Origin: Spirochaetia bacterium
Lineage (GTDB): Bacteria; Spirochaetota; Spirochaetia; CADAEX01
Assembly (NCBI GenBank): GCA_017554185.1
Contig: JAFZIU010000009.1
Span: 1 to 63,578 of the forward strand
Length of the DNA stretch: 63,578 nucleotides
Direction: 5' to 3'
The position numbers and the translations under genes are program-made. The notes under the pieces are model-generated. The model did no database searches and was not told the origin of the DNA. It saw only the letters and a program-made list of their open reading frames with translations. The number at the start of each line of letters is the position of its first letter. Within the stretch, counting starts at the first letter, position 1. This document shows, piece after piece, positions 2,601 through 28,477 of this stretch.

Positions 2601-3863
2601 ATGGCTAAGAAAATAGTACTTGCATATTCTGGTGGACTTGATACAACTGTCATCATCCCATGGCTTAAGGAAAATTACGATTACGATGTCATCGCTGTCT
2701 GCGTGGACGTGGGACAGGGGGACGACTGGGCTGCAATCAAGGCACGGGCCCTCAAGACAGGAGCTTCTGCATGCTACGTTGTCGATGCACGTCAGGAATA
2801 CATTGAAGAGTATGTTTGGCCGGCACTCAAGGCCAACTGTAAATACGAGGATCAGTACCTTCTGGGTACCTCCACTGCACGGCCTTTGATCGGAAAGATT
2901 CTGGTCGAGTATGCACGGCAGGAGGGCGCAGTTGCTATCTGTCACGGAGCTACCGGAAAAGGAAACGACCAGATTCGGTTCGAGCTGGCAATCAAGGCAT
3001 TTGCGCCGGACCTCAAGGTTATTGCCGCATGGCGCGATGACAAGTGGAACATGGACAGCCGCGACGCCGAGATCAAGTTCCTGGAGGACAGGGGTCTTGA
3101 GGTTCCGATGAAGAAGGACCAGTCCTACAGCCGCGACGAGAATATCTGGCACCTTTCCCACGAGGGACTTGAGCTTGAGAAGACCCAGAATGAGCCTAAC
3201 TACAAGCATATGCTGCAGAACACAGTATGCCCCGAGGAGGCTCCTGAGGCTGGCGAGTATGTGAAGATTGAGTTCGAGAAAGGTATTCCGGTAAGCGTGA
3301 ACGACAAGAAAATGAATGGACTCGAGATCATGCTGGAACTTAACAAAATCGGAGGAAGGAACGGCGTTGGCCTTGTGGATATCTGCGAGAACCGCTGTGT
3401 CGGCATGAAGAGCCGCGGTGTGTACGAGACTCCTGGTGGATCTATTCTCTATGCAGCACACGAGATGATGGATCACCTGTGCCTGGACCGGGACACCTAT
3501 CATTTCAAGCAGCAGATATCGCTGCGGATGAGCGAACTTATCTACGATGGCAAGTGGTTCACCCCGCTGATGGATGCATGCAAGGCATTTATCGACATGA
3601 CACAGAAGACCTGCACCGGATGGGTAAAGCTTAAGCTGTATAAGGGCTCTATCCGCGGCGCCGGCTCATGGTCAAAGTACAGCTTGTACAACGAGAGCAT
3701 CGCTTCCTTTACAACTGGCGAGCTTTATAACCATAAGGATGCCCAGGGCTTCATCACTCTGTTCGGACTGCCGCTCAAGGTGCGGGCTCTTATGGAGCAG
3801 CAGGTGGGCGAAGGGCAGGCAATACTGGAGAGCAAAAGCTTCAAGAAGCGGCCTACCGAGTAA
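2601..3863 (+). CDS. argG: Argininosuccinate synthase
   Basis: LAYSGGLDT, HGATGKGNDQ, ENRCVGMKSRGVYETPG motifs. Confidence 0.98.
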   Translation: MAKKIVLAYSGGLDTTVIIPWLKENYDYDVIAVCVDVGQGDDWAAIKARALKTGASACYVVDARQEYIEEYVWPALKANCKYEDQYLLGTSTARPLIGKILVEYARQEGAVAICHGATGKGNDQIRFELAIKAFAPDLKVIAAWRDDKWNMDSRDAEIKFLEDRGLEVPMKKDQSYSRDENIWHLSHEGLELEKTQNEPNYKHMLQNTVCPEEAPEAGEYVKIEFEKGIPVSVNDKKMNGLEIMLELNKIGGRNGVGLVDICENRCVGMKSRGVYETPGGSILYAAHEMMDHLCLDRDTYHFKQQISLRMSELIYDGKWFTPLMDACKAFIDMTQKTCTGWVKLKLYKGSIRGAGSWSKYSLYNESIASFTTGELYNHKDAQGFITLFGLPLKVRALMEQQVGEGQAILESKSFKKRPTE

Positions 3864-3911: not shown

Positions 3912-4028
3912 TCACGAGCGGAAAGGCTACCGCCGGGTGCTGATTAATCAGCATGACTGATTGAGGAACGGCCGCCCTCAGATAATTTTTATACGCGGAA
4001 GACCGGGATATACCCGGTCTTTTGTTTT
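3912..4028 (+). ncRNA. Putative ~115-nt structured small RNA antisense to the 3' end of the PBECR-like gene
   Basis: Bounded by a consensus promoter and an intrinsic terminator; GC-rich stems GCGG/CCGC and TGAGG/CCTCA plus perfect palindrome TGCTGATTAATCAGCA (3938-3953); ends are estimated. Confidence 0.55.
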
Positions 4029-4493
4029 ATACAGGGATTTATGCAGAATAATCTGACCATCAATATCAGACAATTCTATTGCTGCTAGTCTATTCTTTTC
4101 GAACCTTTTTACAAATAAAAGAGAATCTCTGTTTTTACCGTTCGGTTTCTTTCTCGTATCCTTAATCACTTCATCTGGATAAGAAAAAACTTTCTGCAAA
4201 TCTGCATACTCGGCAACACCAACATCTTTGTGGCCATGATTTGCAATGTGATCAATAAAATAACCCTTGCTGCTATAAATGCGGTTATCAACTGCAGTAC
4301 CATCAAAGAAAGGAAGATAGCACAAGGGCAGAAACGCAATAGCTTCAAGAATATTACCAAATCTTTCTTCGCATTCAAGAAGACTCTTCCCTTCTGCCCA
4401 TTTTATATCTAAGGTATTGGATGCCCATTCTATAACTCGGTGCAGCATAACTTCAATCTCTTTATCCTTTTCACTTAAAATAAAAGCACTCAT
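3978..4493 (-). CDS. Putative PBECR-type (Barnase/EndoU/ColE5/RelE-like fold) nuclease or toxin
   Basis: 171 aa with RBS (GTAGGAG); pattern DHIANH...Y..LQ.V...PDEV..D...SLLFVKRF...IILHKSLY resembles PBECR families; recognised by eye only. Confidence 0.5.
   Translation of the reverse strand: MSAFILSEKDKEIEVMLHRVIEWASNTLDIKWAEGKSLLECEERFGNILEAIAFLPLCYLPFFDGTAVDNRIYSSKGYFIDHIANHGHKDVGVAEYADLQKVFSYPDEVIKDTRKKPNGKNRDSLLFVKRFEKNRLAAIELSDIDGQIILHKSLYKTKDRVYPGLPRIKII
3999..4028 (+). terminator. Intrinsic terminator embedded in the opposite-strand CDS
   Basis: AAGACCGGG-ATATA-CCCGGTCTT followed by TTGTTTT. Confidence 0.75.
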
Positions 4494-4671: not shown

Positions 4672-5676
4672 ATGGATAAAAAAGTTAAAATAACATTGTT
4701 GTCAACTATAAAAAGAGGAAGAAAGAGTACAAGATACTTAACAAAGTATAATAACAATTATGCCTCTGTTAAGTTGGATAATAATGAAAATTATTCCCGT
4801 GGAATGGAAATAGAAGTTTCAGAAAAGGAAATAAATGATAAGGAATTTAAAGAAGCTTGGGTAAAAGATATAAAATCTTGGGAAGATAAAAAAAGAAAGA
4901 TTCTAGAACATTTAAGCAAATATAAGAAAGAGAAAATAACAGAAACTGAAGGATATTGGAGAAATAAGGATGGGGATATAATTTTTTATCCCCATATCCT
5001 GCCAGATGATGAAGAAAAGAAAAATATTTTAGATTCTGCTTATAAGGCCTCAATTGAAAATCTTTACGATGAGAAAAAAAATAAAGGTAATAATGTTATT
5101 CATATAGGCTTTAAAAATCTGAATTCTTCCCAGGCATTTGCATTTAATTTTTTTAAGCCTATAATTGATGAAAATATATTCGATAAGTTATTATCAGATT
5201 CGCAAATTTCAACTATTGATGAATCAGATTTTGAGAAAAAAAATCCAGATAGAACTCAGTTCGATTTTTTCTTGCAATCTGGCAAGGTTAAATGTTGTTT
5301 TGAAGTAAAATATACAGAAAGTGATTTTGGCGCTGCTTCTCAGAATTCAGATTATTCAAACTACAAAGAAAAACTAAAAGAATTATTAAAAGAAAAAATA
5401 GAAAAAGAAGATTTCTTTGATGAATATCAATTGTGGAGAAATATTATTTTTGCTTTGGACGGTTATCAGGTCTTCTTTGTATTTCCTAAGTTTAGGGATG
5501 ATTTAGCAAAAAAAGTCGAAGACGCTAAAAATAAATGTAAAGATAATTTCAAAGATAATATTAAGATTCTCTATGTTAATGATTTTGTAGAAAAAATGAA
5601 AAATTCTGAAAACAAAAAATTACGAGATCATTATACAGAGTTTTCTAAGAAATACTTGGAAATACCAACAATCTGA
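4672..5676 (+). CDS. PGN_0703-family putative PD-(D/E)XK restriction-like endonuclease
   Basis: NLNSSQAFAFNFF and TQFDFF...FEVKYTESDFG motifs; strongly AT-rich. Confidence 0.65.
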   Translation: MDKKVKITLLSTIKRGRKSTRYLTKYNNNYASVKLDNNENYSRGMEIEVSEKEINDKEFKEAWVKDIKSWEDKKRKILEHLSKYKKEKITETEGYWRNKDGDIIFYPHILPDDEEKKNILDSAYKASIENLYDEKKNKGNNVIHIGFKNLNSSQAFAFNFFKPIIDENIFDKLLSDSQISTIDESDFEKKNPDRTQFDFFLQSGKVKCCFEVKYTESDFGAASQNSDYSNYKEKLKELLKEKIEKEDFFDEYQLWRNIIFALDGYQVFFVFPKFRDDLAKKVEDAKNKCKDNFKDNIKILYVNDFVEKMKNSENKKLRDHYTEFSKKYLEIPTI

Positions 5677-5957
5677 CCATTTGGGTTTTTATTTGCTTAA
5701 TTAATATAATATTCCACATTTCATTAGCGTTCCATCAACTATTTACCCTTGTTTGATACGATAAATAAAGCATTTGATTTTCTGATTTGCAAAAATCGAA
5801 AAAAATGCCGTTTTTGAGAAATTGTATAAAATCTTGTAATTAAATGAATTAGTAAAAAACTTTCGGTTAAAGTTATAGAATCTTTACAATTTTTAGCTGG
5901 TTTGCTATCTTGTCGCTTGCCTAAATGGGCGGAATTTTTTTATAGGAGAATCCGCAG

Positions 5958-7565
5958 TTGTTATTAGATGTAAATGACCTAGTGAGAAAAGAAAAAAAAG
6001 AGGGGATGGAAACCATCGTTTTTGCGTATGACGAACTGGACTATGCAATGAAGTTCTATGCCAAATGCCTTGAGGAAAATATCAAGCCTGTCATCGGGCA
6101 GAAGGTTATCATAGGCGGGCGCGAAGTGGTGCTCCTTTGCAAGGATGAAGAAGGGTATAGGATCCTATGCCGTCATTCTGCTGATGCAGAACGCTCATTT
6201 ACCGAGGAGGAGACTTCCCATTTTGTCTTTACAACCCTGGAAGCCGCCAATAAAGACAGCAAGCAGATTCCATATATTTTCCCTGAAGGCTATTTTACAA
6301 AAGAGAACTTTTTTAAGCGGCAGATTGATAATCTTCCTGATGTTCCCTTCCCGGCCGGCATTGGCAGTGCGGCTGAGTATCTCACCTCTCTTGTGGATAA
6401 GGGAATCAGATACAGGTATGGTGACCCGACTCCAGAGGTACAGCTGCGGATTCAGCAGGAACTTAATGCAATAATCTCAAATCATCTGGAGAAATATTTC
6501 CTTTTAATTTGGGAGATGACAGCCATGTGCCGTAAAAGGGGAATCCTGTATTCCACATCTTGCGATGACTCCAATGCTTCCATGATATGCTATGTGCTCA
6601 GAATCACTGATGTTGATCCCCTTAAGCACAACCTTTATTTTGAGTTCTTTATAGATCCCAGCAGAGATATTTATCCAAAAATAAATCTCTTTGTGTCAAA
6701 AAATATTATCCAGCATTTACGGAATGTTTATGGTGCTGATTGTGTGGCCTATAACATAGATAAAGAGGAATGGGAAAGGGAAGAGAAAGTTTCCGAATAT
6801 CGCCTTGGCCGTAATTTAATAATTGCAAAGAAGCCTATCTGTAACTATATTCCGGTTTATGAGAGCCCAAGAGGACTGGCCGGTTGGAATGACGGATATG
6901 CAGATGTCCCCTGCTTTAATATCCTGACAGAAGATTGCTGGGGAAAATACTCTTCAGTTGCTCATAGGACTTTCCACACAATATCATTCACAGACCGGAA
7001 AACTCTTAGCTATGTCAAAAAGAATAGGGCAAAGATTTATAGGGGTTATTGGTTCACCGACAAGGTGAAAAGACGGCTTAGAGATTTCAAGCTGAATTCC
7101 TTTGCTAATTTAGTTGTGGTGGAGGCTATTCTTAATATTTACGACGATGACCTTGCTTTGGAGCTTTTTGTAGACATTATTAACAGGCAGAAAAAAGGCT
7201 ATGAACCGCTGTTTGATGGATCTGATGAAATTCTTGGGGAGACCTATGGAAAACTCCTGTTCAAGGAGCAATTTATTCAGATTGTTCAACTGGTTACAGG
7301 GTGGAACATGGAGAAATCGGTTCTGTTCCTTCGCAATGCGGCCCGCAGAAAATATGATGAATTAAAGATACTGATGGATGAGTTCATGGAATGTGCTGTG
7401 AAGTTCGGGCTTTCTTGCGATGTCGCTAAAGAACTGTTCGCCACTTTACAGGATTCGGCAGTCTGGCTGGTATCCAAAGCTTGGTGTCTGGGACAGGCTA
7501 AGTATGTTTGGCAGGATTCATATCTGAAGGCACATTATCCCAAGGCGTTAATTTCGAAAAGGTGA
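5958..7565 (+). CDS. Truncated, catalytically degenerate DNA polymerase III alpha (DnaE) homologue
   Basis: DnaE landmarks ITDVDPLKHNLYFEFF, ETYG...EQ..Q and YLKAHYP; PDIDxD replaced by PKINLF and KxDxL by CFNIL; ends right after YLKAHYP. Confidence 0.8.
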   Translation: MLLDVNDLVRKEKKEGMETIVFAYDELDYAMKFYAKCLEENIKPVIGQKVIIGGREVVLLCKDEEGYRILCRHSADAERSFTEEETSHFVFTTLEAANKDSKQIPYIFPEGYFTKENFFKRQIDNLPDVPFPAGIGSAAEYLTSLVDKGIRYRYGDPTPEVQLRIQQELNAIISNHLEKYFLLIWEMTAMCRKRGILYSTSCDDSNASMICYVLRITDVDPLKHNLYFEFFIDPSRDIYPKINLFVSKNIIQHLRNVYGADCVAYNIDKEEWEREEKVSEYRLGRNLIIAKKPICNYIPVYESPRGLAGWNDGYADVPCFNILTEDCWGKYSSVAHRTFHTISFTDRKTLSYVKKNRAKIYRGYWFTDKVKRRLRDFKLNSFANLVVVEAILNIYDDDLALELFVDIINRQKKGYEPLFDGSDEILGETYGKLLFKEQFIQIVQLVTGWNMEKSVLFLRNAARRKYDELKILMDEFMECAVKFGLSCDVAKELFATLQDSAVWLVSKAWCLGQAKYVWQDSYLKAHYPKALISKR

Positions 7566-7580: not shown

Positions 7581-7988
7581 ATGAGGAAAGGTTTTTCATT
7601 TGTTTTAGTTCTATTATTTTTGTTTGTTTCAGTCGGTATCTTTGCGCAAGGATACAACCCAAATGGTGTTTATCCCCCTTATGATATAGGGAAGTGCCAG
7701 AATATGTTGGGGCGGGCTCTGACTGCCAAGTTTGATCTGGCGCAGAATGGTCAGGATTATTCAGATGTTTCTGTTCAGAAAGCAATTCTTCTTACCGGAC
7801 TGACAAAGAAACAGGCTGAAGTGACCGTCAAATATTGTCCTAAGCTTATGAGATTTTGGAATGACGAAAAGCTTTGGTCCGATAAGGAAAGGCTTACCCC
7901 CGATATATTCTATAGATTGATGCTTAATGTGGATACAAACTCCACCATGATTTATGGGGATATGATTAATGATTTGTACAATAATTAG
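7581..7988 (+). CDS. Hypothetical exported protein
   Basis: RBS, N-terminal signal peptide ending GIFA-Q; no family recognised. Confidence 0.7.
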   Translation: MRKGFSFVLVLLFLFVSVGIFAQGYNPNGVYPPYDIGKCQNMLGRALTAKFDLAQNGQDYSDVSVQKAILLTGLTKKQAEVTVKYCPKLMRFWNDEKLWSDKERLTPDIFYRLMLNVDTNSTMIYGDMINDLYNN

Positions 7989-7998
7989 GAGATAATTT

Positions 7999-8481
7999 AT
8001 GGAATCGATAATTCTTTATTGCAAGAAATGTGATGGTGTTTTTGTTGGTGCAGAGGGGCAGGCTTCGATTTGTCCCACATGTAAAACAGAATTGGTTGAA
8101 ACTCATTGTTCAGAGGAAAAGTGGGATTCTTTAAACAAGGAGGAGAAGATTTCTCTAAAGCATCAATGGAAGACTCAGATTGTAGAACAGAAAACAGAGG
8201 TAAAAGCAGAACAAAGTGATGACTCTGGTTTGGATGATGTTGCTTTTTCAAAAAAGGTATTTGTCATAATAGCCTGTGCAGTTCTTCTCATTATTGGACT
8301 TCTCTGGGGTTATGGTTTTTGTCAGGCATATTCTGATATTAAAAATGAAGAGGGCTTAATTGTAATGGCTTATAGGATTAGTCATAAAGGGCTGAATCCG
8401 ATTTCCAAGAGCGGCTACAAAACATATTTGCATAACTACCCTAAACTTGAGCGACAGGTAAAGTCATTTAGCAGGTATTGA
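7999..8481 (+). CDS. Zinc-ribbon single-pass membrane protein
   Basis: CKKC...CPTC at N-terminus; hydrophobic helix VFVIIACAVLLIIGLLWGY. Confidence 0.7.
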   Translation: MESIILYCKKCDGVFVGAEGQASICPTCKTELVETHCSEEKWDSLNKEEKISLKHQWKTQIVEQKTEVKAEQSDDSGLDDVAFSKKVFVIIACAVLLIIGLLWGYGFCQAYSDIKNEEGLIVMAYRISHKGLNPISKSGYKTYLHNYPKLERQVKSFSRY

Positions 8482-8517: not shown

Positions 8518-8901
8518 TCAGAGCTTTGCCAGCAGGGCTTCCTGCAGCACTTGGGAGCAATTAATATGCTTGCGGTCTGCCAAGATTGATAGCCATCGGG
8601 GGAGCGATACATTTTTACGCACTGCCCGGGTATCTGTTGCTGCTCGGTATGCTAGGGTATCGGCTTTAATTAGCGAAAGCATATCATCCTTATTATGTTT
8701 TATCATTGCTTGGACTGTAGGAGTTGGAATCGATAGATTTTCATCTTCGGCAGTGCAGAGCCAGGCTGCCATTGCATCCGCCATCTGATCCATTGCATCT
8801 ATAAGATCTTTACCGGTAGTAATACAGCCATCAAGATCTGGAATTCTTGCGTATATTTTATTGCCTTTCTTTGTAAAAACTGCGGTGTATGTATATTTCA
8901 T
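8518..8901 (-). CDS. hicB: HicB antitoxin with C-terminal RHH
   Basis: IPDLDGCITTGKDL..A N-terminal domain and RKNVSLPRWL tail; coupled to hicA. Confidence 0.92.
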   Translation of the reverse strand: MKYTYTAVFTKKGNKIYARIPDLDGCITTGKDLIDAMDQMADAMAAWLCTAEDENLSIPTPTVQAMIKHNKDDMLSLIKADTLAYRAATDTRAVRKNVSLPRWLSILADRKHINCSQVLQEALLAKL

Positions 8902-9086
8902 CTTCTTTCTCCTAATTCTATTTCTTTCTCAATATAACGCAGATCATTCTTGTCAAAGCCATGTCGTTTAAGTGGTATTGCACGCCGTAGTTCTGCATTG
9001 AAGTAGATATCGTGGTTGCCGCCATGGCGTTTTAAAAAATATCCAGCCTTCTCCAGAAGCTTAATCGCTTTCCTATGAGCAATCAT
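8898..9086 (-). CDS. hicA: HicA mRNA interferase toxin
   Basis: 62 aa, GYFLKRHGGNHDIY..IPLKRH. Confidence 0.9.
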   Translation of the reverse strand: MIAHRKAIKLLEKAGYFLKRHGGNHDIYFNAELRRAIPLKRHGFDKNDLRYIEKEIELGERR

Positions 9087-9280: not shown

Positions 9281-10327
9281 ATGAGCAAGAACCTGATTGC
9301 ACTGTGCCTTATGTTTGTGTGTGGCCTTTCAATGGCTCCCTGCGCCGAGCAGACGCTTATAGCTGAAGGGGCGGACACAAGATGCCATGTGCGTTATTCG
9401 CCTTATAAGGGTGAGCATGGAGATATGTTCCTGAAGGCGGGGGACAAGATAGCGGTGATCTCCCCATCGGCTTTCCCCAGCAAGAAGCAGGCGGATGCAA
9501 CTGTAAAAGGGCTTAAGGGATGGGGATATGTTCCTGTGATGGGAAAGCATGTATATGGTGCAGTGCGCTCTCTTGCCGATTGTATTGCAGATCTTAAGTG
9601 GGCTCTTTCGGATCCCGAGATAAAGGGTATTTTCTGTGTGCGCGGCGGGTATGGCGCCTCTGAGGTGATGGACCAGATACCTTTGGAATTGATTGCATCA
9701 GCCCGTAAACCTATCATCGGATACAGTGACATCTCCGTATTTCACGCAGGATGGACAAGGGCCGGCCTTCTGTCGGTACAGGCCTGCATGAGTGCTACCT
9801 TTGATGATCTTGCTCCAGAGTGCGTTGAGGCAGAGAAGAACATAATTCAGGGGAAGATTCCTTCATACACATGCGAAGGGAAATTCAAGGGTAAAACCGG
9901 GGAGGCTGAGGGAATCCTGATAGGCGGGAACCTGTCCACCTTCCTATCGGTGCTCGGAACTGCATACGACAGCACAAAGTTGGACCATAAATACATTCTT
10001 TTCCTTGAGGATGTGGAAGAAGATGTCCAGCATATCCACAGATATCTTACAGTTCTAAAGCATTTGGGAGTACTTGATAGAGCGGCTGGGATTGTGTTCG
10101 GAGAATGGACCGGTATACCTGCTGATCTGGGGGATTATACCGGCTCAAGCCGGGGTGGCAAGTACACTTCTGTGACTGATATGATATGCCGGCAGTTTCT
10201 GGATGACCTTGATATCCCGGTGGCCTTCGGTTTCCCGGCAGGACATAGCAATGTGAATTATCCGCTCCTTATGGGAGAGAAAGTTCACCTGAAAGTGACA
10301 GATAAAAACTTTACTCTATTCTATTGA
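9281..10327 (+). CDS. S66-family LD-carboxypeptidase (LdcA/MccF-like) with N-terminal signal-like segment
   Basis: IAVISPS, RGGYGA, GYSDIS (Ser), GGNLS, FLEDV (Glu), GH (His). Confidence 0.9.
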   Translation: MSKNLIALCLMFVCGLSMAPCAEQTLIAEGADTRCHVRYSPYKGEHGDMFLKAGDKIAVISPSAFPSKKQADATVKGLKGWGYVPVMGKHVYGAVRSLADCIADLKWALSDPEIKGIFCVRGGYGASEVMDQIPLELIASARKPIIGYSDISVFHAGWTRAGLLSVQACMSATFDDLAPECVEAEKNIIQGKIPSYTCEGKFKGKTGEAEGILIGGNLSTFLSVLGTAYDSTKLDHKYILFLEDVEEDVQHIHRYLTVLKHLGVLDRAAGIVFGEWTGIPADLGDYTGSSRGGKYTSVTDMICRQFLDDLDIPVAFGFPAGHSNVNYPLLMGEKVHLKVTDKNFTLFY

Positions 10328-17664: not shown

Positions 17665-18240
17665 ATGGACGAGAAAAACAAGATTGGACACAAGGTGGCA
17701 TTCATAAGAGAAAGCCGTGACCTTACAGTGGAAGATGTGTCCGAAAGAGCAAATCTGGCAGTGCAGACAATTACAGACATCGAGAACGGAAACCTTATTC
17801 CGGGACTTACACCGCTGATCAAGATTGCCAGAGTCCTAGGTGTCCGTTTGGGAACTTTCCTGGATGATGAGGAGAACATAGGCCCGGCCCTGACCCGGAA
17901 GAACGAGAAGACCGAGGTTACCCGGTTCTCGGACCGGAGCAATGCAAAGGCATCGGACCTGGACTTCTATTCACTGGCCCACAACAAGGCAGGGCGCCAC
18001 ATGGATCCGTTCATGATCGACGTGTTCCCCGATTCCCACAAGGATGTCCACCTTTCAACCCACGAGGGTGAAGAGTTCATCTATGTAATGAAAGGACAGA
18101 TTGAGGTTATCTACGGCAGGGAGAAGTATGAGCTTTCCGAAGGGGACAGCATCTACTACGACTCCATAGTTGCCCATCACCTCCACTCTGTAGGTACTGA
18201 GCCTGCCAAAATCCTGGCTGTTGTCTACACACCGTTCTAA
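17665..18240 (+). CDS. XRE-HTH + cupin transcriptional regulator (1)
   Basis: N-terminal HTH; HEGEEFIYV...GDSIYYDS..AH cupin. Confidence 0.93.
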   Translation: MDEKNKIGHKVAFIRESRDLTVEDVSERANLAVQTITDIENGNLIPGLTPLIKIARVLGVRLGTFLDDEENIGPALTRKNEKTEVTRFSDRSNAKASDLDFYSLAHNKAGRHMDPFMIDVFPDSHKDVHLSTHEGEEFIYVMKGQIEVIYGREKYELSEGDSIYYDSIVAHHLHSVGTEPAKILAVVYTPF

Positions 18241-18249
18241 GGAGAGACC

Positions 18250-19896
18250 ATGTTTGATATGACTTTGGGCGAAATGCTCAGATACCAGACTAAGAAAGAC
18301 CCGGAGCACGAATTCCTGGTCTACCCCGACCGGGACCTGCGGCTTACCTATGCCCAGTTCGACCACCGTGTGGACCTGCTGGCCAAGGGGCTTTTAGCCA
18401 TCGGAATAAAGAGGGGCGACCATATAGGCATGTGGGCAACTAATGTGCCCGACTGGCTTACCTTCCTCTTCTCCTGCGCCCGTATCGGTGCAGTCTTTGT
18501 AACAGTTAACACCATGTACAAGCTCCACGAGCTTGAATACCTTATGAAGCAGTCGGACATCACAACCCTGTGTCTTTCCAACGGCTACCGGGACAACGAC
18601 TACGTGGCAATGACCAAGACTCTGGTGCCCGAGATGGACTACTACGAGCGGGGACATCTTAAATCCAAGAACTTCCCCTTCCTCAAGAACGTGATCTACA
18701 TCGGACAGGAGAAGCACCGTGGCATGTTCTCCACCCAGGAGATAATGCTCTTAGGTCAGCATGTGTCGGACGAGGAGCTATTCGAGGCAGAGAAAGCTGT
18801 ACAGAAGGATGATGTGGCCAACATGCAGTACACATCGGGAACAACCGGCTTCCCCAAGGGAGTAATGCTTTCCCACTACAACATCCTTAACAACGGCTAC
18901 TACATCGGCGAGAGCATGAAATACACCTCCAAGGACCGTGTATGCCTGCCGGTGCCCCTCTACCACTGCTTCGGAATCGTACTGGGCGTAATGGCCATCT
19001 ACTCACATGGAGCAACCCATGTAATGCTTGAGCATTTCGATGCAAAGCAGGCCCTTATAGCAATAGACCACGAGAAGTGTACCTCCATCTACGGAGTGCC
19101 CACTATGTTCATAGCCGAGCTGAACCACCCGGACTTCAAGAAGTACGATATGTCCAGCCTCCGCACCGGAATCATGGCCGGCTCACAGTGCCCTGTGGAG
19201 CTTATGAAGCGGGTTGTGAACGAGATGAACATGAAGGATATAACCAGCGTCTACGGCCTTACCGAGTCCTCTCCCGGAATGACACAGAGCACCACCGAGG
19301 ATCCGCTGGAAAAGCGTGTGACCACAGTAGGGAAGGAACTTCCTTTCATCGATGTGAAAGTGCTTGACCCCGACACACTGGAGGAGTGTCCGCCTGAGGT
19401 TGTGGGTGAGCTCTGCTGCAAGGGCTACAACATCATGAAGGGCTACTACAAGATGCCGGAAGAGACAGCCAAGATCATCGACAAGAACGGCTATCTCCAC
19501 TCCGGAGACCTGGGCCTGAAGACCAAGGACGGCTACTTCAAGGTCACCGGCCGAATCAAGGATATGATCATCCGGGGCGGCGAGAACATCTACCCTATGG
19601 AGATAGAGGAGTTCCTCCGCACCATGCCCGAGATCAAGGATGTGCAGGTGGCTGGAATTGCAAGCAAGAAGTATGGCGAGGTTGTGGGTGCCTTCGTCAT
19701 CCTGTACCCCGGCAAGGTGCTTACCGAAGAGGATGTACGCAACTACTGCATCGGAAAGATATCCAGGTACAAGGTGCCTAAATATGTATTCTTCCTGGAT
19801 GACGAATTCCCGATGACAGGCAGCGGAAAGATACAGAAGTTCAAGCTTACACAGCTTGGAGCAGAACTCTTGAAGGAAAGGGGGATTGAACCATGA
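18250..19896 (+). CDS. AMP-binding acyl-CoA synthetase (1)
   Basis: [40 protein letters not shown]. Confidence 0.94.
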
Positions 19897-20453
19897 GCGC
19901 ATTAAGCGAAGAGATGAAGCAGGTGGCAGACCGTCTTAAGGGACTGCGTGAAATAATGGATGTATCTGTAGAGGAGGCAGCCGAAGTATGCCACATGACA
20001 CCGGAGGCTTATCAGAGGCTTGAGACCGGAACTGTAGATATCCCTGTAGGGGTTCTGCAGAGCATGGCAAAAAAGTATGGCTTTGAGCTCACCACACTTA
20101 TCTCCGGCGAAGAGCCGCACAGGCACAACTACTTTGTGACAAAGAAAGATCAGGGACTCTCCATAGAGAGGCGGCGGGACTACAAGTACCAGTCACTGGC
20201 CTATGGCTTTGCAAACCGGAAGGCAGACCCCTTCATGGTGGTGGCCCCGGCAGATGACGGAAGCGAAATTCATTTCAATTCCCATCCGGGGCAGGAGTTC
20301 AACTATATTCTCGAAGGCGACCTTAGACTGATTATTGACAAGAAGGAAGTCATTCTAGGGCCGGGGGATTCAATTTATTTTGATTCTACTCGGCCTCATG
20401 GAATGAGAGCTTTGCACGGAAAGCCTGCAAGGTTCCTTGCAATAATCTTCTAA
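19893..20453 (+). CDS. XRE-HTH + cupin regulator (2)
   Basis: HTH plus HPGQEFNY...[11 protein letters not shown]. Confidence 0.93.
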
Positions 20454-20465
20454 GGAGTTTTTTTA

Positions 20466-22124
20466 ATGCTATTGATAGAGAAATTTGTAAATAAAACTGA
20501 GTTTTCATCCTATGATGATTTCTTCAACAACTTCAGGCTGAATGTTCCTGCGAACTTCAACTTCACCTACGATGTCATGGATGTGCTTGCTGCCGAGACA
20601 CCCGATGCCCTGGCCATGCTTTGGATCGACGACCGGGGAAACCGGAGGGACTTCACCTTTGCCCAGATGAAGGAGAATGTGGACAAGACCGCCTCCTTCT
20701 TCAAGTCCCTTGGAATCGGCAAGGGGGACATGGTCATGCTTATCCTCCAGCGGCGCTACGAGTGGTGGTTCTCCATGCTGGCCCTGCACAAGATCGGTGC
20801 AGTCTGCATACCTGCAACCCACATGCTCACTGCCGAGGACATCATATTCAGGAACAATGCGGCCAAGATCAAGATGATTGTTGCTGTGGATGAGAACGAT
20901 ATTCCAAAGCATGTGGAAGAGGCTATGGCCCAGTCTCCTACTGTAAAGAATCTGGTTATTGTCAACACAGAGCGTGAGGGCTGGATCAGCTTTGACAAAG
21001 GGGTTGCAGAGGCTGCCCCATTTGACGGACCTAGAGTGACCGAGAACAGCGATGTCTCCCTTATCTACTTCACATCCGGAACCACAAGCCATCCTAAGAT
21101 GGTGGCCCACGACTACCTCTACCCGCTGGGACATATCACCACTGCCTACTTCTGGCAGAAGGTGCGCAAGGGAGGTCTCCATCTTACTGTGGCAGACACA
21201 GGCTGGGGCAAGGCAGTGTGGGGCAAGATGTATGGCCAGTGGATAAGCCAGGCCACAGTCTTTGTCTACGACTATCATGCCAAGTTCAAGGCTATCGACC
21301 TTATCGGCCTGATCGAGAAGTACCACATAACCACATTCTGCGCACCTCCTACCATCTACCGCTTCCTTATCCAGGAGGACCTTTCAGGCTACGACCTCTC
21401 TTCTCTGGTGCACTGCTCCACTGCAGGAGAGCCTCTGTCTGAAAACGTATTCAATAAGTGGAAGGCTATCACAGGACTGGGCATAACCGAGGGCTTCGGC
21501 CAGACCGAGACCACCCTCTCCTTCCTGAACTTCGACTCAAATTCCATCAAGCCGGGCTCCATCGGAAAGCCTTCGCCATACTACAACGCAGTAGTGCTGA
21601 ACAGCGAGAACCAGGAATGCGACGACGGCGAGGTGGGCGAGATTGCCTTCCCACTCAAGAACGGAAGATTCCCTGGACTTTTCAAGGAATATCTGTATGA
21701 TAAAGCTAAGACCGACAGTGTTGTCCGGGACGGCTACTACTTTACCGGCGACACCGCATGGCGGGACGAGGACGGCTTCTTCTGGTTCATGGGACGGAAC
21801 GACGACGTTATAAAGTGCTCCGGCTACCGGATCGGCACCTTCGAGGTGGAGAGCGTCCTTATGCAGCATCCTGCAGTAGTGGAGTGCGCAGTGACCGGTG
21901 CTCCGGACCCCATAAGAGGCCAGATCGTAAAGGCCACCATCGTGCTTGCAGCGGCATACCGCCCTGGCAGCGAAGAGCTGGTGAAAGAGATCCAGGCCTT
22001 TGTCAAGAAGACAACAGCGCCCTACAAGTACCCGAGGATCGTGGAGTTTGTGGATGAGCTGCCCAAGACCATAAGCGGCAAGATCATGCGCAAGAATATA
22101 AGGGAAAAGGATAACAAGAAATAA
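20466..22124 (+). CDS. Short/medium-chain acyl-CoA synthetase (2)
   Basis: FTSGTTSHPK, GFGQTE, TGD, PKTISGK. Confidence 0.93.
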   Translation: MLLIEKFVNKTEFSSYDDFFNNFRLNVPANFNFTYDVMDVLAAETPDALAMLWIDDRGNRRDFTFAQMKENVDKTASFFKSLGIGKGDMVMLILQRRYEWWFSMLALHKIGAVCIPATHMLTAEDIIFRNNAAKIKMIVAVDENDIPKHVEEAMAQSPTVKNLVIVNTEREGWISFDKGVAEAAPFDGPRVTENSDVSLIYFTSGTTSHPKMVAHDYLYPLGHITTAYFWQKVRKGGLHLTVADTGWGKAVWGKMYGQWISQATVFVYDYHAKFKAIDLIGLIEKYHITTFCAPPTIYRFLIQEDLSGYDLSSLVHCSTAGEPLSENVFNKWKAITGLGITEGFGQTETTLSFLNFDSNSIKPGSIGKPSPYYNAVVLNSENQECDDGEVGEIAFPLKNGRFPGLFKEYLYDKAKTDSVVRDGYYFTGDTAWRDEDGFFWFMGRNDDVIKCSGYRIGTFEVESVLMQHPAVVECAVTGAPDPIRGQIVKATIVLAAAYRPGSEELVKEIQAFVKKTTAPYKYPRIVEFVDELPKTISGKIMRKNIREKDNKK

Positions 22125-22133
22125 GGAGAATCT

Positions 22134-22691
22134 ATGGTAAGTGAACAGAACAAAGCTGTAGCGGCCCGTATACGGGAACTGCGCGACATTATGGAACTCT
22201 CTGAAGAAGAGGTGGCAGAGGTGTGCGGTGTGACTGTGGAGCGCTACCGGGAACTGGAATCAGGCAATACCGAAATTCCTATCAGCGTCATGTTCTGCCT
22301 GGGAAAGAAATACAACATCGACTTGAACACTTTCCTTTCCGGCGAAGATTCCCACAAAGTCTCCTACTTTGTAACCCGCAAGGATAAGGGAATTGTTGTA
22401 GACCGGCTTGCAGACTATCACTTTGAGTCCTTGGCCTATGGCTTTGCCAACCGGCTTGCAGACCCGTTCCTTGTCACTGTAAACCCTGGAGAGATTCCGG
22501 TGATTCATCCGACGACACACCCTGGACAGGAGTTCAACTATGTACTGGAAGGCTCGGTCCGTGTAATGGTGGGGGACAACTATGTGATCTTGAACGAAGG
22601 GGACTCCATCTACTTCGATTCATCACTGCCCCACGGACAGCAGAATGCAGATGACAGACGCATCCGTTTTTTGACATTTATACTACTTTGA
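22134..22691 (+). CDS. XRE-HTH + cupin regulator (3)
   Basis: Paralogue of 19893-20453. Confidence 0.93.
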   Translation: MVSEQNKAVAARIRELRDIMELSEEEVAEVCGVTVERYRELESGNTEIPISVMFCLGKKYNIDLNTFLSGEDSHKVSYFVTRKDKGIVVDRLADYHFESLAYGFANRLADPFLVTVNPGEIPVIHPTTHPGQEFNYVLEGSVRVMVGDNYVILNEGDSIYFDSSLPHGQQNADDRRIRFLTFILL

Positions 22692-22709
22692 TACAAGGAT
22701 TTTACAACA

Positions 22710-24425
22710 ATGGAAGAGGTTTTCTTACCGCGTACAGAATTTTCCTCGTATGAGGATTTTATCGAAAACTACACACTTGATATACCCGAGAACTTCAACT
22801 TTGCCTATGATGTCATGGATGCAATAGCTGCAAGAACTCCCGATGCCAGAGCCATGGTATGGACCAACGACGAGGGCGATGAATGCACCATCTCCTTCGG
22901 TGACATGAAAAAACGTTCAGACCGTGCGGCATCTTTCTTCATGGAGTGCGGCATAAAGCGTGGGGATATGGTTATGCTTATCCTCCAGCGGCGCTACGAG
23001 TTCTGGGTAAGCGTGATGGCCCTGCACAAGATCGGAGCTATCGCCATTCCGGCCACACACATGCTTACAGTGGAGGATCTGGTCTACCGGAACAACTTTG
23101 CAAAGATAAAGATGGTGATTGCGGTGAATGCACCCAGTGTAATAAAGAATATCACTGCATGTCTGCCAGAGTCGCCGACCCTCAAGAAGCTGGTCATGGT
23201 GAACGAATACGGCGTGGACAAGCCGGTTGCAGACCTTCCCGAGGGATGGATTGACTATGTGACAGGATGCAACAATGCAGCACCTTTCCCTGTGCTCAAA
23301 CGGGAAGATGTCTCCACCAACAGCGACTATATGCTGGGCTACTTCACATCCGGCACCACCAGCCATCCTAAGCTGGCAATACACGACTTCCTCTACCCGC
23401 TGGGCCACATAGTCACAGCCAAGTACTGGCAGCATGTCCAGAAAGGAGGTCTGCATCTGACTGTGGCAGACACCGGCTGGGCCAAGACCAGCTGGGGCCG
23501 GCTCTACGGCCAGTGGATCTGCGAGACAGCCCTCTTTGTATACGACTACCATTCCCGGTTCAAGCCGGTGGACCTGCTGGAGCAGGTGCAGAAGTACAGG
23601 ATAACCACATTCTGCGCACCTCCCACCATCTACCGCTTTCTTATCCACGAGGATATATCCGGGTACGACCTTTCATCCATAAAGCACTGCTCCACTGCAG
23701 GCGAGCCTCTCTCCGACGAGGTGTTCAACCGCTGGAAGGAGCTTACAGGCTTTGAGATCACCGAAGGTTTCGGCCAGACCGAGTCCACCGTATTCCTCTT
23801 CAACTTCGAGGGACAGAAGATCAAACCGGGCTCTGCAGGAAAGCCGGCCCCATACTACAACATCTGCCTCCTGAACGACGATCTTGAGGAGATGGGCACC
23901 GCAGTCAGCGGCCAGATATGCTTCAAGCTGGACAAGGAGAAATTCCCTGCAACCGGAGGGCGTTTCCCCGGTTTAGTATGTGAGTACTATGGAGAGCCTG
24001 ACAAGACCAGGGAAGTGTTCCACGACGGCTACTACTTTACCGGCGACACCGCATGGCGGGACGAGGACGGCTACTACTGGTTCATGGGGCGCTGCGACGA
24101 CGTAATCAAGTGTTCCGGCTACCGCATAGGCACCTTCGAGGTGGAGAGCGTGCTGGAGGGACATCCCGCAGTGCTGGAATGCGCTGTCACCGGCGCGCCG
24201 GATCCTATCCGGGGCCAGGTAGTAAAGGCCACCATAGTGCTTACAAAAGAGTACCGCCCCGGAACTCCGGAGCTGGTGAAGGAGATACAGAATTATGTGA
24301 AGCACACCACAGCTCCTTATAAGTATCCACGTATCGTGGAGTTTGTGGACGAGCTTCCCAAGACCATAAGCGGCAAGATCCGGCGCAACGTGATCAAGAG
24401 CCGCGACAAGGAGAAAGCACAGTAA
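22710..24425 (+). CDS. Short/medium-chain acyl-CoA synthetase (3)
   Basis: Close paralogue of 20466-22124 with the same motifs. Confidence 0.93.
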   Translation: MEEVFLPRTEFSSYEDFIENYTLDIPENFNFAYDVMDAIAARTPDARAMVWTNDEGDECTISFGDMKKRSDRAASFFMECGIKRGDMVMLILQRRYEFWVSVMALHKIGAIAIPATHMLTVEDLVYRNNFAKIKMVIAVNAPSVIKNITACLPESPTLKKLVMVNEYGVDKPVADLPEGWIDYVTGCNNAAPFPVLKREDVSTNSDYMLGYFTSGTTSHPKLAIHDFLYPLGHIVTAKYWQHVQKGGLHLTVADTGWAKTSWGRLYGQWICETALFVYDYHSRFKPVDLLEQVQKYRITTFCAPPTIYRFLIHEDISGYDLSSIKHCSTAGEPLSDEVFNRWKELTGFEITEGFGQTESTVFLFNFEGQKIKPGSAGKPAPYYNICLLNDDLEEMGTAVSGQICFKLDKEKFPATGGRFPGLVCEYYGEPDKTREVFHDGYYFTGDTAWRDEDGYYWFMGRCDDVIKCSGYRIGTFEVESVLEGHPAVLECAVTGAPDPIRGQVVKATIVLTKEYRPGTPELVKEIQNYVKHTTAPYKYPRIVEFVDELPKTISGKIRRNVIKSRDKEKAQ

Positions 24426-24491: not shown

Positions 24492-26975
24492 ATGAGTGAC
24501 ATTCTTGAAAAGTATCAAATGTCTGAAGAAGACATAAAATTGCAATACATCACACCGGCAATTCTGGCGAAGTGGGATATTAAAAAAATAACCATGGAGA
24601 CAAAAGCATCACCCCATGTTAACCAGTTTACTGATGGAAAAGTGAATATTCAGGGGAATGTTGCTACACGCGGAACGCCGAAATTCTGTGACTATGTTCT
24701 TTGGTACAATAAAACCACTCCTCTTGCGATTGTAGAAGCAAAGGATAACAATCACACATCTTCTTATGGAATGCAGCAGGCCATTGATTATGGCGTTATG
24801 ATGAATGTCCCATTCGTATATACCTCGAACGGTGACAGCTTTTTTGAGCATGATTTTACTACAGGCTTGGAAAAAGAGCTGGCTATGACGGATTTCCCGA
24901 CGCAAGATGAGCTTATGGCCCGGTGGAAAGGGGTTGCCACTTCTGTGATTAATGAGGCAGTAGGAAATAAATATGCACTGCCAGAAAATAAAGACAGTTA
25001 TAATGTACCGCTCTATTATGATGAAAAACTGCTGAGCGAGCCGTTCTATTCTGGCGTTGATACCTTCCCTCCTCGTTATTATCAACGGAATGCGGTAAAT
25101 AGGACCTTGGCCGCTATAGCAAGAAACCAGAACCGTGTTCTTCTGGCAATGGCTACAGGTACCGGAAAGACCTACACAGCATTCCAGATTGTCTGGAGAC
25201 TGCTAAAGGCTGGTGTCAAGAAAAAGGTTCTGTACCTTGCAGATCGGAACAACTTGGTTGATCAGTCAATCCAGCAGGATTTCAAGCCCCTTTCCAACGT
25301 CATTCACAAAATAAACTTCCAGAAAGAGGATAAATCAAAAATTTCTGCTTATCAGGTATATTTTGCCTTGTATCAGCAACTTGATTCAAAAAAATCAGAT
25401 GACGAGGAAGAAACAGAAGAGGAAATAACCGAGGAGGTAGGAAAATATCAAGAGTTCTTTGATTCAGATTTCTTCGACCTTATAATTGTTGATGAGTGCC
25501 ATCGGGGCTCAGCCAAGGCAGAAAGCCGATGGAGACGGATTCTTGAGTATTTCTCCAGTGCAACGCAGATTGGTATGACTGCAACTCCAAAAGAGACAAA
25601 ATATATTTCGAATATTGATTATTTTGGAGAGCCGGTATATTCATACAGCCTTAAACAAGGAATAGAGGATGGATTCCTTGCCCCGTTCAAAGTGATCAAT
25701 GTGCATACCAGTGTAGATGACGGCTGGAGGCCTTACAAAGGGCAGACAGATTATTATGGGAATGAGATAGAAGACAGAGAATATGCCCTTTCTGATTTTG
25801 ATTATACTATTGTCCTCCAAGACCGAATTGACCATGTGGCAGCCGAAATAACTAAATATCTAAAAGAAACAGACCGCATGGCCAAAACCATTGTGTTCTG
25901 CCCTACCGAGGCAGCTGCCGAGCGTATGCGGGTGGCATTGAACAATCTGAATACCGATATGGTGCTGAAGGATAAGCACGGAAATGTCAAAGAACAGTAT
26001 GTGGTGCGTATAACCGGCAGCGATAAATATGGAAAGGCAAAACTGGACTACTTTATCTCAGTTACAGAGAAATACCCTGTTATTGCTACAACCTCCAAAC
26101 TGCTCTCAACTGGGACAGACTGCAAGATGGTCAAACTTATTGTCATAGATGAAATGATTAATTCTATGACCGAATTCAAGCAGATAATTGGCCGTGGTAC
26201 ACGGTTGCGGTTTGAAGATGGCAAAACTCATTTTGCAATTATGGATTTCCGGCGTGTTTCCAGGCTCTTTGCAGACCCTGAGTGGGATGGAGAAGTGGAA
26301 CAGGATGATGAGTTTGATCCAACTTTGATAGATCCTACGAAAGACGAGAAGAAAAAACCAACAGGAACAGTAGAACTGATTGATCCACCCAGAACAAGAC
26401 CGCCTGTATATGTAGTTAAAAAAGATGGGTGCAGAGTCGAAGTAACCCAGCGCCTTGTGGCAATTTATGATGCTGATGGAAAGCTTCTTAAGCAGGAAAG
26501 CATAGAAGATTACACCAAAGAGAGTATTCTTGGTACATATGTTTCTCTTGAGAACTTCATTTCTACCTGGACTGCTGAACAGAAAAAAGAGGAGATAAGA
26601 AAGCTTTTCTTGGAAAAAGGTATAGATCTGGAAATGGTCAAAAAGCAGCAGAATATGGAAGATGTGGACGATTTCGACTTTATATGCCATATCGCTTTCG
26701 ACCAGAAGCCTCTTACCCGGAGGGAACGGGTTAACAATGTTAAAAAACGTAATGTCTTTGGTAAATATGGAGAACAGGCAAGGGAAATAATAGATTTCCT
26801 TTTGGACAAATATGCCGAGCTGGGAGTATATCAGATAGAATCGCCGGAGATTTTAAAACAGGAGCCTTTCACAAAATATGGAAAACCTTCCCGTATCGCA
26901 CTTCTTTTTGGTGGCAACGCCCAGTACTGGCAGGCTTTGAAAGAGATTGAAGCAGAATTATATAGGTTGGCATAA
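24492..26975 (+). CDS. hsdR: Type I restriction subunit R (EcoAI/EcoEI-like)
   Basis: DYVL..AIVEAK nuclease, ATGTGKT, DECHR, QIIGRGTR, EcoEI-type C-terminus. Confidence 0.95.
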   Translation: MSDILEKYQMSEEDIKLQYITPAILAKWDIKKITMETKASPHVNQFTDGKVNIQGNVATRGTPKFCDYVLWYNKTTPLAIVEAKDNNHTSSYGMQQAIDYGVMMNVPFVYTSNGDSFFEHDFTTGLEKELAMTDFPTQDELMARWKGVATSVINEAVGNKYALPENKDSYNVPLYYDEKLLSEPFYSGVDTFPPRYYQRNAVNRTLAAIARNQNRVLLAMATGTGKTYTAFQIVWRLLKAGVKKKVLYLADRNNLVDQSIQQDFKPLSNVIHKINFQKEDKSKISAYQVYFALYQQLDSKKSDDEEETEEEITEEVGKYQEFFDSDFFDLIIVDECHRGSAKAESRWRRILEYFSSATQIGMTATPKETKYISNIDYFGEPVYSYSLKQGIEDGFLAPFKVINVHTSVDDGWRPYKGQTDYYGNEIEDREYALSDFDYTIVLQDRIDHVAAEITKYLKETDRMAKTIVFCPTEAAAERMRVALNNLNTDMVLKDKHGNVKEQYVVRITGSDKYGKAKLDYFISVTEKYPVIATTSKLLSTGTDCKMVKLIVIDEMINSMTEFKQIIGRGTRLRFEDGKTHFAIMDFRRVSRLFADPEWDGEVEQDDEFDPTLIDPTKDEKKKPTGTVELIDPPRTRPPVYVVKKDGCRVEVTQRLVAIYDADGKLLKQESIEDYTKESILGTYVSLENFISTWTAEQKKEEIRKLFLEKGIDLEMVKKQQNMEDVDDFDFICHIAFDQKPLTRRERVNNVKKRNVFGKYGEQAREIIDFLLDKYAELGVYQIESPEILKQEPFTKYGKPSRIALLFGGNAQYWQALKEIEAELYRLA

Positions 26976-28475: not shown

Positions 28476-28477
28476 GA

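Follow-up and report, generated by a model that had tools for sequence, protein, structure and literature searches.

Two systematic surveys of the bacterial C-family polymerases, the superfamily of DnaE, dropped the sequences that lacked an intact active site (PMC3919608, PMC12926913), and the inactive polymerase homologues that they describe are of the Y and X families only (PMC3919608, PMC12926913). Because such sequences were removed, a conserved family of inactive DnaE homologues is unreported in both surveys. We have found one in a contig of a Spirochaetia bacterium, by our reading a rumen Treponema (JAFZIU010000009.1, assembly GCA_017554185.1), whose whole length of 63,578 nucleotides (nt) is called the window from here on. 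At positions 5958 to 7565 of its forward strand lies a gene for a DnaE-like protein of 535 amino acids (aa). An earlier note, made from the letters of the window, had described an intact DnaE homologue that has lost all three catalytic aspartates and had proposed a retained non-catalytic role. Both parts of that description stood. Judged from its sequence and conservation, the gene appears to be a pseudo-polymerase, a miniaturised C-family member that is maintained as a folded protein without DNA synthesis. The gene and its parts are the following:

5944-5949, + strand: ribosome-binding site (RBS) AGGAGA, with an 8-nt spacer to the TTG start
5958..7565, + strand: mini-DnaE gene, predicted to be catalytically dead; 535 codons, TTG start, stop codon included, open reading frame (ORF) uninterrupted
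5958..6257, + strand: PHP-domain remnant, ~aa 1-100, metal ligands substituted (Pfam; MAFFT against full-length Treponema DnaE)
6258..6752, + strand: N-terminal palm, ~aa 101-265 (Pfam DNA_pol3_alpha)
6552..6581, + strand: former GS or nucleotide-binding motif, aa 199-208, STSCDDSNAS for GPGRGSGAGS (HMMER, MAFFT, family table)
6675..6692, + strand: former catalytic DxD site, aa 240-245, PKINLF for PDFDVD (HMMER, MAFFT, family table)
6753..6977, + strand: residual C-terminal palm, ~aa 266-340, with a disordered loop at the thumb deletion (alignment gap against DnaE ~440-540)
6912..6926, + strand: former site of the third catalytic Asp, aa 319-323, CFNIL for KMDFL, D replaced by N322 (MAFFT, family table)
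6978..7562, + strand: fingers domain, ~aa 341-535 (Pfam DNA_pol3_finger); the protein ends 9 residues past YLKAHYP
7470-7496, + strand: VSKAW in place of FNKSH, within the fingers

The homology to DnaE is clear. Three Pfam domains, each of them partial, follow one another in the canonical DnaE order: PHP (3.2e-7, aa 5-80 only, profile positions 17-98 of 164), the palm family DNA_pol3_alpha (2.3e-24, aa 140-265, profile positions 1-131 of 260) and DNA_pol3_finger (2.3e-9, aa 341-482). A phmmer search of all PDB chains retrieved Pol III alpha structures only (3e-24 to 5e-19), the first being Mycobacterium tuberculosis DnaE1 (5lew, 3e-24), with Escherichia coli and Taq DnaE at ~1e-23 to 1e-19, and the alignment reaches the fingers (query 418-530). 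Pfam, phmmer against the PDB and Foldseek agree in placing the protein in the C-family superfamily (Foldseek E 1e-23, query-normalised template-modelling score, TMq, 0.75). What is missing is everything that would make it a functional DnaE1, that is, the catalytic triad, the GS motif, FNKSH, complete domains and a score above the NCBIfam thresholds. The protein falls below every cut-off of the NCBIfam DnaE models (151.7 bits vs 434, TIGR00594 or equivalog), while a full-length DnaE from a related locus, L017, used as control, scores 1398 vs 1002. In both the HMMER and the MAFFT alignments the equivalents of E. coli D401, D403 and D405 are K241, N243 and a phenylalanine, and that of D555 is N322. 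The substitution of the GS motif and the unrecognisable PHP ligands, also pointed out in the earlier note, were found again: STSCDDSNAS aligns to GPGRGSGAGS, the first HxH of the PHP domain is missing, TDH has become AYDE and GCE has become GQK.

The protein is also much shorter. Aligned with full-length Treponema DnaE by MAFFT, it has lost the C-terminal half of the PHP domain (~130 aa) and most of the thumb (~100 aa), two deletions that are not in the earlier note. The early end after YLKAHYP, without helix-hairpin-helix (HhH), clamp-binding or OB regions, had already been noticed; HHH_6, OB and the C-terminal domain have no Pfam match in the protein, and the full-length Treponema DnaE run as control gives all of them. 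Neither an intein/Hint domain (Pfam) nor a nearby complementary C-terminal half of DnaE was found; the genes downstream code for 135-aa and 160-aa non-DnaE proteins and do not supply the missing half. Polymerisation is ruled out as far as a sequence allows, and making DNA is almost certainly not the job of this protein. Stable binding of duplex DNA of the DnaE kind is doubtful, since the thumb, HhH and OB are gone, and the role as DNA-binding scaffold that had been suggested meets the same difficulty, with the clamp-binding element absent as well. What remains is a compact palm and fingers body with a PHP stub, constrained over its whole length.

The gene is not an isolated case. In a database of 5.8 billion proteins we found relatives of 400-560 aa at 87% down to 44% identity. 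The relatives are on metagenome contigs from ruminant or other gut samples, and the dead clade itself was seen in ruminant-gut metagenomes only. In a profile search of 1.84 billion representatives the clade amounted to no more than a few clusters at 50% identity; next came proteins of ~770 aa and then ordinary DnaEs. When four motifs were tabulated over all sequences, none of the ~60 clade members had the catalytic triad, and the nucleotide-binding motifs were missing in every one. No alignment puts three acidic residues at the catalytic positions, which was the check by which the loss of the triad could have been overturned. At most a single Asp is left, at the equivalent of either D403 (PKVDFP) or D555 (CFDII), and the substitutions at the DxD site vary by subclade (PKINLF, PTVTFP, ALISFC). 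The distribution of these changes indicates that inactivation occurred more than once in the family. Besides, degeneration, partial or full, is seen in independent relatives (P0068, P0075, P0077, P0090, L008, L014), whereas other small ones keep intact motifs (P0071, 561 aa; P0081, 670 aa), so truncation and inactivation are separable events. One member, P0013 (852 aa), carries two DnaE-like units in tandem. Members of the family are named "DNA polymerase III alpha subunit" by one source in the protein database, which is a practical annotation problem.

A protein of this kind could still be an enzyme, either a polymerase working with non-canonical residues or a new activity on the old fold. 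The family alignments do reveal invariant Cys and His residues that are family-specific and absent from housekeeping DnaE (C37, C61, C71, H88, H176, C191, C211, H253 and C262), and it is conceivable that these form a metal site; the single Asp kept in some members could be read in the same way. However, triad, GS motif and FNKSH have all been lost, and the replacements are not the same from one subclade to the next, which speaks against a conserved alternative active site in the old place. The region around the former third Asp is moreover the least constrained of the protein (see below). We consider continued enzymatic activity highly improbable.

DNA could be recovered for 13 copies of the gene, all from metagenomic contigs, and the frame is open in 13 of 13; the ~60 clade proteins, at 44-97% identity, are likewise uninterrupted. 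Pairwise ratios of nonsynonymous to synonymous substitutions (dN/dS, here omega, by the method of Nei and Gojobori, NG86) were 0.15-0.35 at all levels of divergence, dS values over 1.5 and protein identities down to 44% included. As controls, argG of the same genomes gave 0.01-0.02 and housekeeping dnaE 0.06-0.10. Compared with these housekeeping values, the constraint on the DnaE-like gene is relaxed yet clearly purifying. By segments, the N-terminal palm is the most constrained of four (0.10-0.21), the PHP remnant gives 0.15-0.44, and the former third-Asp site with the thumb stub reaches 0.68, the least constrained. The AlphaFold2 model of the protein is confident (mean predicted local distance difference test, pLDDT, 84; predicted template-modelling score, pTM, 0.83). 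Its fingers have a pLDDT of ~90, and the sole disordered loop (pLDDT < 50 at aa 275-284) is at the thumb site. In Foldseek the model matched M. tuberculosis, Taq and E. coli DnaE with query-normalised scores of 0.73-0.77.

These data bear directly on the simplest alternative, a decaying gene or the relic of a dead element that is intact by chance. Every catalytic motif is gone, there are several internal deletions, omega is 3-10 times that of housekeeping genes, and one relative of the longer ~770-aa type (L013) is frameshifted, all of which a pseudogene would explain. Yet omega stays at 0.15-0.35 even with saturated dS, the structure is predicted with confidence, and start codon, RBS and promoter are conserved. 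With 13 intact copies and such omega values the pseudogene reading is effectively refuted. A retained role, as had been suspected, is favoured by the finding that dN/dS is not near 1, with no disrupted copy among the 13 DNA copies or the ~60 proteins, and that no alignment restores the acidic triad. We regard it as very probable that the protein is selected and non-catalytic.

The origin of the family can be traced to another group. A scan of GTDB representatives, one genome per species, gave matches only in Treponema and Spirochaetaceae, and these were not normal dnaE genes; they were ORFs of ~770 aa (for instance in T. porcinum ATCC BAA-908, contig NZ_FUWG01000006.1, L010:7899-10217). The 535-aa gene itself was absent from the representative genomes scanned. 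The 770-aa type ends after the fingers at the same point as the 535-aa protein and has the derived motifs IKPIIGQK, LLCKD..YKILCRHS, SHF and FIFPE.YF in common with it, and it keeps GPGRGS, PDFDIDYD, KNDLLGL, FNKSH, the thumb and a PHP domain that is full-length but ligand-poor. In a bootstrapped neighbour-joining (NJ) tree, distance-based, over 409 shared columns and with 200 replicates, the 535-aa clade was monophyletic (197/200) and grouped with the 770-aa type to the exclusion of all housekeeping spirochaete DnaEs (197/200). The tree and the motifs point to the 770-aa lineage as the direct evolutionary parent group of the 535-aa clade; an origin by tandem duplication of an adjacent full-length dnaE was considered and is ruled out by the same tree. 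Among the nearest relatives of the clade in the tree is P0075, which has the full 770 aa and is already catalytically degenerate, suggesting that catalytic death came first and shrinkage later. A series can be laid out that goes from host DnaE to the truncated active mini-DnaE of a putative mobile element, to the dead full-length mini-DnaE (P0075) and to the dead proteins of 535 and ~400 aa.

Next to the 770-aa type are genes for a DnaB_C-like ATPase, for a Cas4/DUF2779 nuclease (directly upstream), for a D5-like primase-helicase and for an RNase_T/DnaQ-like exonuclease; PcfJ-like, AAA and GmrSD proteins, a WYL regulator and an IS110 insertion also belong to the neighbourhood. On this content, the locus probably serves an undescribed integrated mobile element as its replication module. 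The 770-aa mini-DnaE is itself undescribed as far as the two polymerase surveys go. Loci of this type (L009-L012, L027, L028, L031 and L033) carry paralogues of dnaE in Treponema. The L013 gene (L013:7926-10095, in a Spirochaetaceae metagenome-assembled genome) is in two frames of 320 and 421 aa, the sole disrupted mini-DnaE seen, a split that could be genuine (a pseudogene) or due to the assembly.

A second replication protein has followed a similar course. Where the polymerase gene is of the 770-aa type, the Walker A motif of the DnaB_C-like protein is intact (VGKT or IGKT); in the homologous 258-aa protein of the 535-aa-type loci it reads PVVRKTDF, with GKT turned into RKT and a deletion. 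The omega of this partner is 0.26-0.31. On these residues, the DnaB-like protein seems to have lost its P-loop in parallel, in the same lineage as the DnaE-like protein lost its active site. In one strain the two are fused in a single protein of 784 aa (P0011, L005:10001-12355), DnaB_C-like with dead P-loop first and DnaE-like second, and this Rosetta-stone evidence argues that they work together physically.

Upstream of the gene there is a leader that seems to belong to the cassette:

5719..5957, + strand: conserved cassette leader and promoter, ~240 nt, non-coding; it can be aligned between all loci, even for clades whose synonymous sites are saturated
5883-5911, + strand: sigma-70-like promoter, TTTACA (5883-5888), 17-nt spacer, TATCTT (5906-5911) (promoter scan)

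It is found exactly once before every DnaE-type gene of this position (L001, L005 in two copies, L015-L026) and, by BLAST, is absent from the 770-aa-type and housekeeping loci. Between distant alleles its identity is 61-73%, against 41-49% at synonymous sites. No Rfam family matched it, and it could be the operator for some regulator or a recombination boundary of the cassette. Two candidate features of the leader were rejected: a hairpin at 5913-5941 followed by a T-run, taken as a conserved attenuator, is not conserved in other alleles, and the reverse-strand ORFs over the leader (C12) are absent from the window.

The cassettes occupy a slot between two conserved genes. The features of the slot in the window are these:

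2601..3863, + strand: argG (argininosuccinate synthase), left conserved flank (Pfam); 91-95% nt identical across loci
3978..4493, - strand: PBECR3 protein (Barnase/EndoU/colicin-like nuclease domain; Pfam 1.4e-9); also in L015
4672..5676, + strand: REase-ARP, a PD-(D/E)XK nuclease, upstream neighbour of the DnaE-like gene (Pfam PF22558, 2.8e-32)
7581..7988, + strand: C1, 135 aa, signal-peptide-like N-terminal segment; it starts 16 nt past the stop codon of the DnaE-like gene
7999..8481, + strand: C2, 160 aa, CxxC...CxxC zinc ribbon and a hydrophobic (transmembrane) helix; 11-nt gap after C1
8518..9086, - strand: HicB antitoxin (8518-8901) and HicA toxin (8898-9086) (Pfam)
9281..10327, + strand: LD-carboxypeptidase (Peptidase_S66), right conserved flank (Pfam); syntenic in L001 and L005

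And these are the contents of the slot in the different strains:

Window: PBECR3 gene, REase-ARP nuclease, DnaE-like gene, C1, C2, hicBA
L001: HigB-like toxin-antitoxin (TA) pair, 363-aa gene, 537-aa allele, YoeB/RelB, MmeI-type restriction-modification (R-M) enzyme
L005: YoeB/RelB, metallo-beta-lactamase (MBL)-fold gene, two tandem cassettes (541 and 784 aa)
L021-L024: 258-aa DnaB-like gene and a 560-aa cassette, with or without a further one of 400 aa
L020: cassettes of 435 and 423 aa

The TA, MmeI, MBL and nuclease genes between argG and ldcA differ from strain to strain. Pfam assignments of PBECR3, REase-ARP and HicB/HicA agree with the toxin-rich patch that had been reported around the gene, and the recurrent defence neighbourhood that was expected if it were involved in conflict appears at every related locus, always with conflict-type neighbours. 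Immediately upstream of every cassette there is a nuclease-like gene of 250-375 aa whose family and orientation vary, the orientation even within a family (window 4672-5676; L001:8633-9724; L017:860-1987, - strand; L005:6586-7614, - strand; L022:3954-4943). A D...(D/E)xK-like motif is present in all four families that were aligned (REase-ARP, weak PDDEXK_13); the L022 gene has a weak match to NERD. Profile-profile comparison among the four gave E values of ~0.02-0.03 on the D...ExK cores, suggestive only, with 3 sequences per alignment. The relation between nuclease and cassette may be functional pairing or island packing, and a literature search for "REase-ARP" returned nothing. Downstream, in 10 of the 11 loci whose sequence extends that far, C1 is the next gene after the last DnaE-type gene, and C2 is present in 8 loci with an omega of 0.14-0.19. 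Neither C1 nor C2 matches a family in Pfam, PHROGs, NCBIfam or PADLOC. A recurrent setting of TA, R-M and nuclease genes, a variable hotspot and an allelic diversity exceeding that of the backbone together mark a conflict island.

Elsewhere in the window, a type I R-M R subunit (ResIII, EcoEI_R_C, HSDR_N) opens a run of large co-oriented ORFs at 24492-31374, a second defence locus. The stretches 39358-49392, 51406-56112 and 58623-61544 code for a cluster of very large proteins (765-1568 aa) in which DUF285, MBG_2 and InlB B-repeat-like domains occur; they are probably repeat proteins of the surface or adhesin-like type. At 17665-24425, a helix-turn-helix (HTH)-cupin regulator and an AMP-binding enzyme (17665-19896) are followed by ORF pairs of 186 and 552 aa and of 185 and 571 aa, which may make up a three-fold tandem repeat if the unannotated pairs match the annotated first one.

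The argG backbone is 91-95% identical at the nt level, with a dS of 0.25-0.5, and the DnaE-like gene goes from 97% down to 66% nt identity (44% aa) with dS values from 1.7 to over 3, so the cassette alleles are far older than the chromosome around them. C1 and C2 also come in very divergent allelic types (dS ~1) that reassort independently of the cassette: L021 and L023 have cassettes 97% identical and C1/C2 only ~80%, and in L017 and L021 the cassette is 69% and C1/C2 93-99% identical. Such a pattern is one of long-lived recombining allelic diversity, the signature of conflict-driven selection, and fits poorly with a housekeeping accessory factor.

A private conserved leader, tandem duplication and reassortment between backbones could belong to a selfish cassette without benefit to the host, persisting by its own maintenance and spread (gene conversion, hotspot recombination) or as a still-mobile element, with selection acting on the element; the family origin in a mobile-element replication module would fit as well. 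Nevertheless, in the 15 loci that carry 535-type cassettes no recombinase, integrase or transposase accompanies the cassette, it always sits between argG and the same right flank, and a dead polymerase with a dead helicase cannot replicate an element. A purely selfish cassette is in our opinion distinctly unlikely.

In two independent contigs the slot holds something different. After a dead cassette of 542 aa comes a full-length, apparently functional DnaE of 1162 aa (L017:4145-7633 and L019:3385-6897), with PHP, palm, fingers, HhH and OB all present. Its gene is homologous to the housekeeping dnaE from the ATG to the stop codon and no further, and upstream of it the cassette leader stands in place of the native dnaE promoter. 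The ordinary dnaE of the lineage is always found at manA, dnaE, yggT, recG and is 83-90% identical to the island copy, which has the same omega as housekeeping pairs (0.06-0.10) and groups with them in 200/200 NJ replicates. These strains, known from contigs, may have a second dnaE or a relocated one. The capture of a host dnaE under the same promoter hints that what the slot supplies is "DnaE-ness" itself. A 541-aa ORF after yggT in L043, a further candidate mini-DnaE, was rejected, being recG cut by an assembly gap.

A host-type dnaE ~90% identical to the housekeeping gene, under the cassette promoter in some strains, could be a spare or a decoy target, and it brings in the idea of a decoy or guard of the host replisome, in which the dead DnaE and the dead DnaB-like protein would mimic host parts and soak up phage inhibitors or trigger the nearby toxins on binding them. 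The defence-island context, the ancient diversifying alleles and the fact that polymerase-like and helicase-like proteins are both kept dead are consistent with it. On the other hand, a mimic is expected to track the host protein, and local segments of the 535-aa protein match host DnaE at no more than 25-32% identity. It has lost half of the PHP domain, the thumb, the clamp-binding motif, HhH, OB and the tau-binding parts, where most known partner contacts are located. Because it descended from a separate, element-associated lineage (197/200) it is a poor mimic of host DnaE, and being neither derived from the host protein nor closely like it weakens the decoy idea. We know of no phage inhibitor of DnaE from this system, and in the literature we found no pertinent DnaE-like defence proteins or phage inhibitors of Pol III alpha. 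A host-replisome decoy seems rather unlikely to us.

The full-length dnaE beside the cassette could also be connected with an accessory of host replication or repair, a dead polymerase that would bridge or regulate DNA-metabolism proteins under stress as ImuB does; the Y family has dead paralogues that act as scaffolds (PMC12926913), and WYL-type regulators, often tied to DNA-damage responses, are found near the catalytic relatives. But the active site is lost, no locus has imuA, imuB, dnaE2, PolY or recA-type neighbours, so that DnaE2 and the ImuABC mutasome do not describe it, and there is no clamp-binding motif. The absence of the gene from the GTDB representatives scanned and the extreme allelic divergence within one species-level backbone are also atypical of such a factor, which makes this function very unlikely.

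The reading that we prefer is that the gene codes for a maintained pseudo-polymerase that came from a mobile element and is used in conflict with phages or elements, and we put the probability of this whole explanation at about 0.5. It is suggested by the mobile-element ancestry, the hotspot location, the tandem amplification and the ancient alleles. The conflict role of the 535-aa protein, against phages or related mobile elements, taken by itself has about an even chance, and its target is at least as likely to be the replication proteins of the mobile element or phage as an inhibitor of the host replisome. In this model, the polymerase of a mobile element would have been domesticated and would have kept its binding function only. 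Together with the dead DnaB-like protein, in strains that have it, the dead DnaE would bind proteins or replication intermediates of the incoming element and, once bound, act as a poison or competitor subunit that blocks its replication; in an alternative version of this step the dead DnaE would be a sensor that licenses the neighbouring effectors. The adjacent nucleases and membrane proteins are candidate partners. More tentatively, and with clearly less confidence, we suggest a domesticated "pseudo-replisome", in which the polymerase and the DnaB-like helicase of an element have been killed, then miniaturised and long kept as hypervariable tandem cassettes in an immunity hotspot, blocking or sensing elements through their replication partners.

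Several observations weigh against the conflict model. C1 and C2 evolve independently of the cassette, and the upstream nucleases, set apart by the cassette's own promoter, may belong to the island in their own right. A poison-subunit model does not predict the full-length dnaE of host type that some strains have behind the cassette promoter, and this dnaE fits the host-replisome decoy better. The putative mobile-element nature of the 770-aa module is read from its gene content, and the supposed target element was not found: in phages and plasmids, tblastn with the 772-aa type picked up nothing but generic DnaE (~30%), and the family alignment gave nothing against viral contigs. (A fold search of BFVD likewise returned only generic phage DnaEs.) No model of PADLOC-DB v2 matched REase-ARP, the DnaE-like protein or C1 and C2, and the matches of two variable neighbours were marginal. 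The hint of transcription is one 151-nt contig of depth 2, in one metatranscriptome and from another allele; the window allele was in none of the RNA runs searched.

If the pseudo-replisome is real, it would be the first conserved family of catalytically dead C-family polymerases, and a bacterial analogue of the dominant-negative restriction factors made from a parasite's own genes. A true conflict role would amount to a new principle in bacterial immunity, the exaptation of a parasite's disabled replication proteins, and would provide a minimal stable palm-and-fingers scaffold with which to study DnaE surfaces apart from catalysis.

Among the known systems, DnaE1 or Pol III alpha (2hnh, 2hpi, 5lew) is similar in having the PHP part, the palm and the fingers in the same order (TM ~0.75). 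The 535-aa protein differs from it in having no triad, GS motif, FNKSH or PHP ligands and in lacking half of the PHP domain, nearly all of the thumb and the domains after the fingers, and the host dnaE lies elsewhere, between manA and yggT-recG. The 770-aa mini-DnaE has the same C-terminal end point, the derived motifs and a DnaB_C-like protein and nucleases nearby, but it is catalytic, its partner has an intact Walker A, and it is found in a module resembling a mobile element, without the cassette leader and away from the argG hotspot. The split or short DnaEs of phages (Corynebacterium phage P1201, Pseudomonas phage PA5) and the intein-split DnaE of cyanobacteria are also coded by ORFs well under 1100 aa (PMC3919608), but each of them is one part of an active polymerase whose other part is coded nearby, whereas here there is no complement, intein or catalytic residue. 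Loss of the polymerase active site with retention of the protein is known in non-canonical PolX and PolX-like proteins (PMC9226535, PMC12926913), which differ in keeping an active PHP exonuclease; in the 535-aa protein the PHP domain is truncated and ligand-less. The same fate befell ImuB, kept as a non-catalytic partner protein (PMC12926913), although ImuB belongs to the Y family and has a clamp-binding motif and fixed partners in an SOS operon, and the 535-aa gene is a cassette of a hypervariable island without imu genes. As far as the surveys and the literature go, the 535-aa clade is the first pseudo-polymerase of the C family, with an unusual cassette biology.

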